Part shown: positions 3,753-28,070 of the stretch, piece after piece
How positions within the stretch are numbered: the first letter of the stretch is position 1
Layout: every line of letters begins with the position of its first letter
Virus record (IMG/VR): IMGVR_UViG_3300014204_000172
Location: 1 to 64,000 of that record
From: a virus
Lineage: Duplodnaviria; Caudoviricetes
Length of the DNA: 64,000 nucleotides
Direction: 5' to 3' (one strand)
The notes under the pieces: generated by a model
What the model was told of the DNA's origin: nothing
Databases searched by the model: none
The model's input: the letters and a program-made list of their open reading frames with translations, nothing else
Translations under genes and position numbers: made by a program

Positions 3753-4172
3753 TTATAATCCATCCGTATCATCGCTACTTACAGAATCAATATCGAATTT
3801 TCCTCTTTCAAATATATATCCGCCTTCTTCTGCACTTAATGTGGATTCATTAAATAAAACTGGTGGATTGGATTGATTAACTTCTTTTTTCATTTTTTCA
3901 TATAATTCCGTCCATCGTCTAGCTCTTTCTGACAAATCAAAAGAAACTCCACCAATAGAAGTGGATACTTCTGTCTGGAATCTCATGCAAACAGATTCAA
4001 CCAATTTTAATTTAGCTGTATACCAATCATCTGAATAATAAGCAATTACGGCTATGATTTCTTCATCAGTTAATGCAGCCGAGCTAGGATCAGTATTAAC
4101 GTCACCTAGCTCGAATCTCATTTTATCCTTTGTATTGGTCATAATGTTTGCAATATTATAAGTATAAGCCAT
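3753..4172 (-). CDS. Head-tail connector protein
   Basis: MRFELGD..LTDEEI motif; position after capsid. Confidence 0.7.
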   Translation of the reverse strand: MAYTYNIANIMTNTKDKMRFELGDVNTDPSSAALTDEEIIAVIAYYSDDWYTAKLKLVESVCMRFQTEVSTSIGGVSFDLSERARRWTELYEKMKKEVNQSNPPVLFNESTLSAEEGGYIFERGKFDIDSVSSDDTDGL

Positions 4173-14692: not shown

Positions 14693-16225
14693 TTACCCAC
14701 CTTTCCAATATGAATTCTTTTCTATGGCTGTAGGCATCTCTTCATCACTCTTTTCTGGTTTCATGCAATATATTATACCTAGGCTCATAGCATCCACAAT
14801 ATCTTTTAATATCATTTTAGGGAAACCTAATAATTGATTTTTAAAATCTTCTACCCATGGTTGATGTAAAGAAGGATCAGGTAAAAGAATATTGCCGGAT
14901 AACCAATAACCAGTAGTAGCCCTAGCTCTTTCCTCTTTGCTTCCCTTAGGTTTAACTAAAATAATCCCCGGAATTGTTTTATGTAAGGTATCTGAAACGG
15001 ATTGAGCAGCAGCAGCATCTTCTACAATCTTTTTTCTGACTTCAATATACTTGTCGTGAATACTCCTGAATTCATTACAAATATCGGTGAATGCCATTTT
15101 ACGATGAACCAAGTCAATGATATATACCATCATTCCATCCTGAGCTGCAATAATACAAGCACATTCCGCCGTATTTTCTCCCTTTTTAAATGGCATATCC
15201 CAGAAAGAGAACCATTCAGCAGATTCAGGAACAGCATCGAAATAATGGGTAAACATTTCCTGTTTGAATATGATACCTTCAGCCGGTGTCGGATTCTGTT
15301 GGAATTGAGCTGAAAAGTATTGAGGACCCATGTTGACCCACATCTTGTCTAATGTCTTTTGGCTTAATCGAATAGGATCCAATAAATCATCTTTTTCTCT
15401 TATCTTATACGTCTTACTTATAGGAAAATAGATGGTTTGTCTTTCCTCAGCTTTAGCAGGTAAGATTAATTTATCCCATCCTAACTCATTGATAAAATGG
15501 TTTGCAGCATCCGCCTCATGTAAGCGTTGCATAATACATATCATGTTTCCGGTTTCCTGATCGTTTAATCGTGTTGCCAAAGTGTTTTTAAAAAATGTTA
15601 TAACATTCTCTCTGACTGTTTCTGAAAATGCTTCATCCGGTTTCTGTGGATCATCAATAATAATACAATCTCCACCTTCTCCTGTTAACATACCACCAAT
15701 GGATGTAGCAAACATAAATCCTGAATCTAAGTTTTCAAACATTTCTTTCTGGTTTGTATCATGGCTCAGTATAACTTTCCAGTAGTTCTGGTACCATTTG
15801 GAATTAATTAACTTTCTAGCGATAACATTATGTTTGGTTGATAGTCTATAGCTATAAGAAACTTTGATAAATCGTTTCCATGGTTTAGTAGTCCAAACCC
15901 ATGAAGGATAAGCAACAGCTACCGATAACGATTTAGTGGATCGAGGCGGTACATTAATAACTAAATTTTGTATCTGTCCTCGTTCAATGGCTGTTAAGTA
16001 TTCACAGATAGCATCTAAATGCCAGTTCCATATAAAGCTTCTTTTCGATTCGTAATTACCCCATGATGCCTTTAGAAATTCAGCTAAGTTTCTTTCGTAA
16101 ACTGCTTTTTCTAAACAATAATCATGAAGTTTTGGATTTTTTGGCTTTTTCGTTAATTCGTTGGTAAGTAAGTAATTCGTCATCGGTGAGGTTTGAGAAA
16201 TCATAGACCTCCTCTGAATCTTCAT
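14693..16225 (-). CDS. terL: Terminase large subunit (exact start uncertain: 16225, 16204 or 16183)
   Basis: WNWHLDAIC, NVPPRSTKS (Walker A), IIIDDP (Walker B), QQNPTP, nuclease WD..K and KDIVDAMS. Confidence 0.93.
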   Translation of the reverse strand: MKIQRRSMISQTSPMTNYLLTNELTKKPKNPKLHDYCLEKAVYERNLAEFLKASWGNYESKRSFIWNWHLDAICEYLTAIERGQIQNLVINVPPRSTKSLSVAVAYPSWVWTTKPWKRFIKVSYSYRLSTKHNVIARKLINSKWYQNYWKVILSHDTNQKEMFENLDSGFMFATSIGGMLTGEGGDCIIIDDPQKPDEAFSETVRENVITFFKNTLATRLNDQETGNMICIMQRLHEADAANHFINELGWDKLILPAKAEERQTIYFPISKTYKIREKDDLLDPIRLSQKTLDKMWVNMGPQYFSAQFQQNPTPAEGIIFKQEMFTHYFDAVPESAEWFSFWDMPFKKGENTAECACIIAAQDGMMVYIIDLVHRKMAFTDICNEFRSIHDKYIEVRKKIVEDAAAAQSVSDTLHKTIPGIILVKPKGSKEERARATTGYWLSGNILLPDPSLHQPWVEDFKNQLLGFPKMILKDIVDAMSLGIIYCMKPEKSDEEMPTAIEKNSYWKGG

Positions 16226-25803: not shown

Positions 25804-26001
25804 TTAATCCTCCGTAATTCTTTTCCAATTAACTTTGATAATGTTAGATTTTACTAATGAATTAACAACTAATCTTGCCATCTGGTTTTCAACATCTTCT
25901 TTGGTGCATAAATCATCAATTTTTAAATTTATTTGTATTGAATGTAATCTAACTGTTTCAATCTTTATTTCATATTGAATCGGGTCTTTTTTAATCGTCA
26001 T
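25804..26001 (-). CDS. Hypothetical protein
   Basis: Tiles on - strand. Confidence 0.5.
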   Translation of the reverse strand: MTIKKDPIQYEIKIETVRLHSIQINLKIDDLCTKEDVENQMARLVVNSLVKSNIIKVNWKRITED

Positions 26002-27022
26002 TATGCATATACCTAAATTTTAATTGATTAAGTTTTTCCGCTGTGTTAATGATTACTTCTTTTAATTCAATTCTATTTATCCAATCCGTAGGAAGTTTAT
26101 CTGAACCTAAATAAGCTCCTAAGATTTGTCCAGTAATGGATCCTGTACTATCTGAATCTCCTGAATGGTTAACTGCTACTCTTAATGCTTGTTTAAAATT
26201 ATGTTGATATTTTAACGAACAATAAATAGCAATTGCCAATGCTTCTTCGGCTATCCATCCCTGACCAATAAATTCTATAATTTCCTGATCTGTATGCTTT
26301 CTAGTTTGTTCCGCAAATTTAATTGCCTGGAATGCTTTGTAGGTAGTAGAGTTATTTAGAGTATTGCTTACTCTTTTTGCTGATTCTAATATAGCTACTT
26401 TTAAGTCATAACCCATCAAAAGTAAACTAATTAAATAAGATAAAAATCCAGCCGGGATATATGCTTTTTCTGAACCATGGGTAATAGCTGCTATATGACA
26501 TCCAGCTTCAAAGGATTCATCATGTCTATAAACCAATCCTACCGGGGCGATTCTCATTAAACCACCACAACCAGAACTATCATTAATCGGTTCTCTTACT
26601 GTTCCTAACTTATTACTTAATAAAGATTTAATACAAGTTTCTCCCGGTGATCTAATTTTCCATAATTCTTGAATACTACTTAAAAAACTATCTTTGTTAG
26701 TTGATTTATTTGGATAGCCTTGCGTTGCTAACCATTGTAAATAAGATTGATAAATAAAATTAATGGTTTCTTCTCGGTTATCTCTTATATTTTTATCAGC
26801 TATAATTAATCCCTCGGCTGTAAATAAAGTCATTTGCGTATCGTCAGAAATTAATGCTTTTTTGGTTTTAAGATCTATTTCTGGGTCCTGTATTCCATAA
26901 TATCCATAATGGGTCTGAATCGCATTAAAACTTAAAAATTCTATAGGATAGCCTAATGCATCACCTAAAGCTCCGCCAAGTAAGCAACCTGTGATTTTAT
27001 TTCTCATCTCTTTCCCGTCCAT
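25991..27022 (-). CDS. ADP-ribosylglycohydrolase (ARH/DraG family)
   Basis: GCLLGGALGDALG, SDDTQMT, SGCGGLMR, THG, GDSDSTGSITG. Confidence 0.95.
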   Translation of the reverse strand: MDGKEMRNKITGCLLGGALGDALGYPIEFLSFNAIQTHYGYYGIQDPEIDLKTKKALISDDTQMTLFTAEGLIIADKNIRDNREETINFIYQSYLQWLATQGYPNKSTNKDSFLSSIQELWKIRSPGETCIKSLLSNKLGTVREPINDSSGCGGLMRIAPVGLVYRHDESFEAGCHIAAITHGSEKAYIPAGFLSYLISLLLMGYDLKVAILESAKRVSNTLNNSTTYKAFQAIKFAEQTRKHTDQEIIEFIGQGWIAEEALAIAIYCSLKYQHNFKQALRVAVNHSGDSDSTGSITGQILGAYLGSDKLPTDWINRIELKEVIINTAEKLNQLKFRYMHNDD

Positions 27023-27024
27023 GA

Positions 27025-27192
27025 TTATTTTCCTTCTTTACTCTCAAAAAGGACTAAAGCGTATTTATGATAGTCTTCTCTTTTTTGGATAGCTTTGACT
27101 AGACTTCCTAATTTTTGTGTAGTTTTATTTACATATTCCCAGCTTGTATAGCTTGATCCATTTTTAAATTCTATTTCTGTATTGCCATTCAT
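27025..27192 (-). CDS. Small hypothetical protein (55 aa, not in ORF track)
   Basis: Hand-translated MNGNTEIEFKNG...; AAGGAG SD; directly downstream of the ribozyme. Confidence 0.6.
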   Translation of the reverse strand: MNGNTEIEFKNGSSYTSWEYVNKTTQKLGSLVKAIQKREDYHKYALVLFESKEGK

Positions 27193-27205
27193 TTTTACTC
27201 TCCTT

Positions 27206-27270
27206 TAAGTTGTCTCATCAGGGTTAGTAACTTATTTCTAACCGACTCGGATTTTACTCCGAGTTTCGAC
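27206..27270 (-). ncRNA. Type II hammerhead ribozyme with pseudoknot
   Basis: GUC-GAAA-[ACUCGGA/UCCGAGU stem III]-C cleavage site (GUC)-[GGUUAG/CUAACC stem I]-CUGAUGA-GAC; loop I UAAGUU pairs with 3' AACUUA; intergenic. Confidence 0.9.
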
Positions 27271-27271
27271 T

Positions 27272-27451
27272 TTAATTATGAGCTGATCCCTCTTTTTTGT
27301 AGAAATAACTACCGACTGGATTATTGGCTAAATCGAATAACTTTCCGTTACCTTCTACTAAAGACCCATCTACTAATGAATCAATTAATATTCTTAGGAC
27401 GTTTCTTGCTGTCATATCGTCAGTGGTTTTGATGTTTATAATTAATGTCAT
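27272..27451 (-). CDS. Small hypothetical protein (59 aa, not in ORF track)
   Basis: Hand-translated MTLIINIKTTDD...LFDLANNPVGSY. Confidence 0.6.
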   Translation of the reverse strand: MTLIINIKTTDDMTARNVLRILIDSLVDGSLVEGNGKLFDLANNPVGSYFYKKEGSAHN

Positions 27452-27979: not shown

Positions 27980-28029
27980 TTTGCCCTCCTAGGCTTTTTT
28001 ATTTACAACCTCTTGGTTGATTGCTATTA

Positions 28030-28057
28030 ATTATAGTGACTTATAATTAATAATCAA
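28030..28057 (-). promoter_or_regulatory. Putative promoter (16-bp-spacer family)
   Basis: TTGATT-N16-TATAAT(TAAT) in intergenic gap. Confidence 0.7.
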
Positions 28058-28070
28058 GTATTTTCTTAAT

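Follow-up and report, generated by a model that had tools for sequence, protein, structure and literature searches.

A conserved, pseudoknotted type II hammerhead motif between two small genes of an uncultured phage lineage

Introduction

Type II hammerhead ribozymes occur commonly among bacteria and prophages (Perreault et al. 2011, PMC3088659), and prophage hammerheads have been shown to cleave polycistronic RNAs both in vitro and in vivo (PMC3088659). The criteria by which candidates were accepted in that work are the presence of the core nucleotides (C3 U4 G5 A6 N7 G8 A9, G12 A13 A14, A15.1, U16.1 and H17), the absence of mispairs adjacent to the core, and the absence of multiple mispairs in the stems (PMC3088659). 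The type II consensus in addition includes, as a feature of the majority, a pseudoknot in which loop I pairs with the bases that directly follow stem II (PMC3088659). Among the closest described cases, the prophage hammerheads at ardA in Agrobacterium tumefaciens cleave in vitro and in vivo (PMC3088659), and in Desulfovibrio vulgaris, in vivo cleavage by three type II hammerheads was detected with cyPhyRNA-seq as 2',3'-cyclic phosphate and 5'-OH ends (PMC8782182). A further hammerhead, from the haloarchaeal viruses HF1 and HF2 and discussed in PMC3088659, is located 13 nt upstream of the start codon of a helicase gene, with a mapped 5' end at most 3 nt away from its cleavage site (PMC3088659).

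Here, we analyse an element of this kind in a window of 64,000 nucleotides (positions 1–64,000), part of a 73-kb IMG/VR virus record (IMGVR_UViG_3300014204_000172) that is ~84% complete. A first-pass annotation, made from the letters alone, had proposed a pseudoknotted type II hammerhead on the minus strand of this window, and that identity was upheld by the criteria of Perreault et al. 2011, by compensatory changes in an orthologue (contig L030) and by the geometry of a large class of similar elements. By sequence criteria, it is well supported that the motif is real and conserved and that it belongs to a known, very large class. We consider it very probable that the window contains a functional type II hammerhead, stabilised by its pseudoknot, in a minus-strand polycistronic phage mRNA, probably starting near 28030, and at least equally probable that it self-cleaves.

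Results and discussion

The phage lineage and the gene neighbourhood

All ORFs of at least 250 aa in the window are found on the minus strand, and no tRNA genes were detected in positions 1–64,000. The TerL protein (14693–16225) is at most 34% identical to that of any GenBank phage, and a blastn search with the ribozyme region gave no match among GenBank phages. Judged from these comparisons, the window represents a sparsely sampled phage lineage without a close sequenced relative.

The ribozyme is positioned between two small genes, a 59-aa ORF (27272–27451, minus strand) and a 55-aa ORF (27025–27192, minus strand, with its start AUG at 27192), and occupies almost the whole of the 79-nt spacer between them. 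The gene that follows (25991–27022, minus strand) encodes an ADP-ribosylglycohydrolase (ARH) of 343 aa (PF03747, E = 3.7e-65), in agreement with the first-pass annotation, and is the second gene downstream of the ribozyme, not the first. No Pfam or PHROG family was found for the 55-aa ORF, the protein of which was found only in this phage lineage, as three variants among 5.8 billion proteins. Its stop codon is 2 nt from the ARH start, a spacing that suggests coupled expression and possibly a functional pair.

Architecture of the ribozyme

The ribozyme, including its pseudoknot tail, comprises 65 bases on the minus strand (27206–27270) and has a G+C content of 42%. It is separated from the stop codon TAA of the 59-aa ORF (27274–27272) by a single A (27271), and begins with the GUC strand of stem II (27268–27270; positions 11.3–11.1), which pairs with GAC at 27214–27212 (positions 10.1–10.3). 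The core nucleotides G12 A13 A14 (27267–27265) and A15.1 follow as GAAA (27264–27267) and lead into the stem III hairpin, which consists of 7 bp (27264–27258 with 27251–27245), all Watson–Crick and including A15.1:U16.1, closed by loop III with the sequence GUAAAA (27257–27252). When hammerhead numbering is applied, the predicted cleavage site falls between C17 (27244) and G1.1 (27243), with 27243 as the predicted 5'-OH end. The stem I hairpin has 6 bp, again all Watson–Crick (27243–27238 with 27227–27222), and a loop of 10 nt (27237–27228), within which the strand UAAGUU (27229–27234) is fully complementary to the 3' tail AACUUA (27211–27206). Core positions C3–A9 (CUGAUGA, 27215–27221) precede the GAC strand of stem II, directly after which the tail begins. 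The Shine–Dalgarno (SD) sequence AAGGAG of the 55-aa ORF (27200–27205) abuts the pseudoknot with a gap of 0 nt, and the start codon is found 19 nt after the ribozyme.

Compared with the published acceptance criteria, the core is complete, as CUGAUGA, GAAA, U27245 (U16.1) and C27244 (H17) are all present. The core-adjacent pairs are all standard (G10.1:C11.1, G27214:C27268; G1.1:C2.1, G27243:C27222; A15.1:U16.1, A27264:U27245), and stems I, II and III contain 6, 3 and 7 uninterrupted Watson–Crick pairs, respectively, with no mispair. Stems I and III are loop-closed and stem II is open, giving the type II order 11.x-GAA-III-H17-I-CUGANGA-10.x, and the pseudoknot between loop I and the nucleotides just 3' of stem II, for which at least 4 bp were required, has 6 bp at tail offset 0 (4 bp in L030). 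Stems III and I were also recovered in the unconstrained minimum-energy fold (z = -2.5). The complete core described in the first-pass annotation (CUGAUGA, GAAA, the GUC triplet and cleavage at 27244/27243) was recovered base for base on the minus strand; the stem lengths and the open GAC/GUC stem II given there are those read here, and the complementarity it had pointed out between loop I and the tail amounts to six pairs directly before the SD.

A chance origin of such a motif within an AT-rich spacer was assessed with a permissive type II descriptor, which demanded the core and no fewer than 3/1/3 stem pairs and accepted G:U, run on random genomes generated as first-order Markov sequences. 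In favour of chance, the descriptor gave 0.83 matches per random genome, and in the real genome it found one weak match elsewhere besides the ribozyme site. Against this, the stem total of 16 pairs was reached in none of 300 random genomes (maximum 15), with neither the 6-bp pseudoknot nor the G10.1:C11.1 pair counted in, and an all-Watson–Crick pseudoknot of 6 bp located exactly after stem II adds approximately three further orders of magnitude. Considered along with the conservation and compensatory changes, a geometry that matches the modes of a large natural class exactly and the covariance model score described below, the chance reading is effectively refuted, and we assign it next to no probability.

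Conservation in an orthologous locus

A search with the ARH protein returned one close protein, 72% identical, encoded by the 10-kb JGI contig L030. This contig is syntenic with the window (YopX, MmcB-like, small ORFs, 59 aa, an 80-nt spacer, 55 aa, ARH) and is the only syntenic relative with a full-length, different variant of the ribozyme (L030:4749–4813), three more contigs from other samples carrying an identical spacer. L030 has kept the core, stem II, tail and SD without any change. Stem III contains one compensatory change (U:A to C:G) and stem I contains two (G:C to A:U and A:U to G:C), making three compensatory double changes with no disrupted pair, and 100% of the stem cells are paired in both sequences. 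Loop III differs in both length and sequence, while loop I carries one U to C substitution through which one pseudoknot pair is lost and a 4-bp UAAG/CUUA core is left. Altogether, 11 of the 12 differences within the ribozyme are either compensatory or located in loop III. This covariation comes from one comparison of two full-length variants, for which a shuffle control cannot fall below ~1 in 8 (69/500); in a slid-partner control, the proportion of paired cells dropped from 97.7% to 25–46%.

The ribozyme is 81.5% identical between the window and L030, compared to 57–59% for the third codon positions of the flanking genes, and it accounts for a 79-nt spacer that is better conserved than the synonymous sites of the adjacent genes. 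The flanking genes themselves display the codon-position pattern of real proteins, and in the 55-aa protein, which is 67% identical in L030, the third codon positions are the most diverged. A third variant of the locus, on contig L033, encodes a 55-aa protein 91% identical to that of the window; the contig starts inside CUGAUGA (L033:1–28, UGAUGAGAC), most likely as the result of an assembly break, and the core strand is invariant here as well. Profile searches with the 55-aa and 59-aa proteins against 5.8 billion proteins found only the window, L030 with identical copies, and L033, and an ARH-based scan of viral contigs for related loci found none. Samples in which the lineage is present are JGI 3300037067, ENA ERZ27247350/58 and SRR6484787.

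The pattern of substitutions also bears on a non-catalytic explanation, in which the hairpins would serve as a protein or RNase III site or as an mRNA stabiliser and the hammerhead core would be a non-cleaving relic. Such a relic would fit with the lack of an Rfam match at the ribozyme, treated below, and with the inactivity in assays of a minority of the candidates of Perreault et al. (PMC3088659). On the other hand, all 11 of 11 core positions as well as stem II are invariant while synonymous sites are only 57–59% identical, and a relic would have drifted. The hairpins moreover change while keeping their pairing and the single-stranded core remains constant, which is the pattern of a ribozyme and not of hairpins alone, and the pseudoknot occupies the position that it has in active type II ribozymes (PMC3088659). 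We therefore regard a relic as very unlikely and retain the reading of a catalytic hammerhead.

A large class with the same geometry

In a scan of metagenomes, the search pattern was constrained at the core, the 3-bp stem II and three neighbouring bases only; it yielded at least 119 loci where approximately six are expected by chance. Among the matches listed, 125 hammerheads were parsed, with modal values of 6 bp for stem I, 10 nt for loop I, 7 bp for stem III and 5 bp for the pseudoknot. The window's stem I, loop I and stem III coincide with these modes among the matches listed, and its pseudoknot has 6 bp. Several listed members share the exact pseudoknot register of the window (3 nt, 6 bp and 1 nt within loop I, with tail offset 0), and 82% of the listed class have, at tail offset 0–2, a Watson–Crick pseudoknot with 4 or more pairs, compared to 13% of the control. 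A covariance model (R1) built from 67 listed members, with the window left out, matched the window at full length and without a gap (27271–27202) at 65.1 bits (E = 3e-15), a score that is partly circular as 23 positions are fixed by the window-derived pattern; the corresponding score for L030 was 63 bits.

An exact 16-mer from the 3' half of the ribozyme gave 28 matches in viral contigs, all of them chance matches in coding DNA, and a pattern derived from the ribozyme's own pseudoknot sequence gave 8 matches and 0 hammerheads. Type I and type III descriptors and R1 were run over the whole record and detected no second ribozyme.

Several members of the class are found in dense arrays. In L151:360–3165, L139:2925–4830, L110:325–1520 and L085:90–1595, 4 to 7 or more type II hammerheads are present per 1.5–3.3 kb, so that nearly all small genes are preceded by one, which takes the prophage 'flanking' arrangement to an extreme. 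L126, a phage-like contig with an AT-rich type II hammerhead, carries three to four clustered tRNA genes (935–1007, 2571–2652 and 3828–3979).

The Rfam type II model and base composition

An Infernal search with the Rfam hammerhead models had been put forward in the first-pass annotation as a check, and this check failed: no Rfam family reached its gathering score in the window (1–64,000), the ribozyme included. RF02276 (Hammerhead_II) likewise gave no match over the whole 73-kb record at E up to 10. When an 81-nt stretch was searched with Rfam, only a partial Hammerhead_3 alignment of 12 bits was obtained, which we regard as noise, as we do the 17-bit 'freshwater-2' match in the window. RF02276 does align the L030 orthologue end to end, at 32.5 bits (E = 1.5e-5), below the gathering cut-off of 37 bits.

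The behaviour of the model depends on composition. GC-rich class members pass the RF02276 gathering score with 42–60 bits, and among 22 descriptor-verified members in 12 loci the model recovered 10 of 14 with a G+C content of at least 54% and 0 of 8 with at most 52%. Four of the latter (L125:536–592, L126:7044–7106, L117:6621–6680 and L140:101–164) were missed both at the gathering score and at E up to 1, and the other four (L085:659–722, L096:3168–3230, and L048:1742–1808 and 2016–2081) at the gathering score. Because all eight AT-rich verified members are also missed, we read the negative Rfam result as a composition blind spot of RF02276 and not as counter-evidence to class membership. As every AT-rich, descriptor-perfect member tested escaped the model, type II hammerheads are probably under-annotated in AT-rich phages, and the present locus would add a bona fide ribozyme to the annotation of an uncultured phage lineage.

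The transcription unit and the predicted cleavage products

A promoter-like, sigma-70-like site (TTGATT-16-TATAAT; 28030–28057, minus strand) is found ~780 nt upstream of the ribozyme, and both hexamers are conserved in L030. The site is located in a 91-nt gap upstream of a 175-aa ORF, and this gap is ~90% identical to that of L030. Transcription of the unit to which the ribozyme belongs probably starts here. A conserved hairpin, CAACC-AAGA-GGUUG, follows the promoter-like site shortly before the SD of a gene with a GTG start (window 27985–28060, minus strand; L030:3560–3640), and could act as a 5'-UTR stabiliser or an operator. No terminator-like sites were found on the minus strand between the promoter at 28030 and the ribozyme, nor from the ribozyme down to position 16000. 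The conserved upstream promoter and the lack of a terminator-like site together place the ribozyme in the interior of what is predicted to be a long polycistronic RNA; with all genes on the minus strand, this sustains the placement of the ribozyme inside an operon by the first-pass annotation. The same annotation had described a downstream RNA encoding the 55-aa protein and the ARH. Both genes are indeed on this RNA, but an end after ARH is not supported, since with no terminator-like site down to 16000 the predicted 3' product is probably longer than these two genes. A weak promoter-like site at 27303–27275, which would start transcription inside the ribozyme, was rejected: L030 lacks a conserved counterpart, and sites of this sort occur less often here than in shuffled sequences.

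On the preferred reading, stems III and I would fold as hairpins once the polymerase has passed 27206, the 3-bp stem II would close the three-way junction, and the pseudoknot between loop I and the tail would hold stems I and II parallel, whereupon the 2'-OH of C27244 would attack its own phosphate. The predicted 5' product carries the 175-aa and 59-aa genes and would end in the 7-bp stem III hairpin plus one C with a 2',3'-cyclic phosphate, whereas the predicted 3' product would start with a 5'-OH G and carry the 55-aa and ARH genes, probably together with other small ones. With this G paired in stem I, the 3' product would have no single-stranded 5' leader. As the two halves would be base-paired only through the 3-bp stem II, they should separate, making the cut effectively irreversible.

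Both predicted new ends would be hairpin-capped, and in bacteria such ends generally slow exonucleolytic and 5'-end-dependent decay. The suggestion of the first-pass annotation, a 5'-OH, hairpin-capped downstream RNA whose stability or translation may be tuned, is in accord with hammerhead chemistry and with this geometry. The expected consequence of cleavage would be operon halves with different decay and translation rates, as in the 'intercistronic punctuation' that has been suggested for hammerheads of prophages. When precursor and 3' product were compared by nested folding, no clear change in SD accessibility was seen, which leaves a translational effect without computational support. With a single ribozyme between a stop codon and an SD, the locus offers a clean, small construct for the question of how cleavage relates to downstream expression.

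Gene context of the class and a possible link to translation

The position of the ribozyme relative to its neighbouring genes recurs throughout the class. Among 83 non-redundant listed ribozymes, 75 (90%) have an SD and a start codon no more than 45 nt downstream (median 25 nt; control 17%), and 46 (55%) are preceded by a stop codon ending 0–4 nt upstream (control 15.5%). The arrangement in the window, with the stop 1 nt before and the start 19 nt after the ribozyme, is the norm of the class, with the space between two cistrons filled by the ribozyme. Listed members are directly followed by genes that are small (median ~97 aa) and mostly without a Pfam family. A link of the class to ARH or to any one gene family was rejected, as a Pfam scan of 59 downstream genes left 54 without a family and found 0 ARH genes. 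This variety is in line with the published remark that genes flanked by hammerheads are not constant (PMC3088659), and the association of ARH with the ribozyme is positional and specific to this lineage.

Such tight spacing raises the possibility, unlikely in our judgement, that the element is a translation-coupled switch and not a constitutive cutter, its cleavage rate reporting ribosome traffic and determining how strongly the upstream part is expressed relative to the downstream part. Termination at the UAA 1 nt before the ribozyme would place a ribosome over the GUC-GAAA strand and block folding, and a 30S subunit at the SD abutting the pseudoknot would compete with the tertiary contact. 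The distances in the window are those that such a switch would use, the stop ending 1 nt before stem II and the SD starting 0 nt after the pseudoknot, and the class-wide frequencies of adjacent stop and start signals given above point the same way. In a tested type II ribozyme, pseudoknot integrity moreover alters the cleavage rate 20- to over 100-fold (PMC3088659). The spacing is, however, equally explained by compact packing of phage genes with the ribozyme filling the spacer, no alternative conserved structure was seen, and the nested folding gave no difference in SD sequestration. Extended to the class, the proposal would make these type II hammerheads ribosome-sensitive cistron separators, with terminating and initiating ribosomes gating both folding and cleavage, and in this general form we find it similarly doubtful. 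If true, ribosome gating would give phages protein-free control over the dosage and lifetime of adjacent accessory genes relative to each other, in this case the 55-aa ORFan and the ADP-ribosylhydrolase.

Comparison with known systems

The element most resembles the class described by Perreault et al. and modelled in RF02276 (Hammerhead_II), with which it shares the permuted topology (loops on stems I and III, a short and open stem II), the invariant core, the placement of the pseudoknot and a location between small genes of a phage-type operon. It differs from that class in being AT-rich (42% G+C) and unreported by RF02276, and in being present as a single copy in the 73-kb record instead of as one of several flanking copies. 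With the triple hammerheads at ardA in the A. tumefaciens prophage it has in common a polycistronic phage transcript punctuated beside an accessory gene; in that case three ribozymes are located on both sides, whereas here there is one, upstream only, and the neighbours are the 55-aa ORFan and ARH. The hammerheads of D. vulgaris (PMC8782182) are of the same type and found near hypothetical and phage-like genes, but host and sequences differ, and the D. vulgaris ends have been mapped while those of the present element are predicted from sequence. The HF1/HF2 hammerhead is similar in lying directly upstream of a start codon, which in HF1/HF2 is the first start of an early polycistronic transcript. 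It belongs to an archaeal virus, has a variant core and is positioned at the 5' end of its transcript, in contrast to the ribozyme of the window, which is located between two cistrons.
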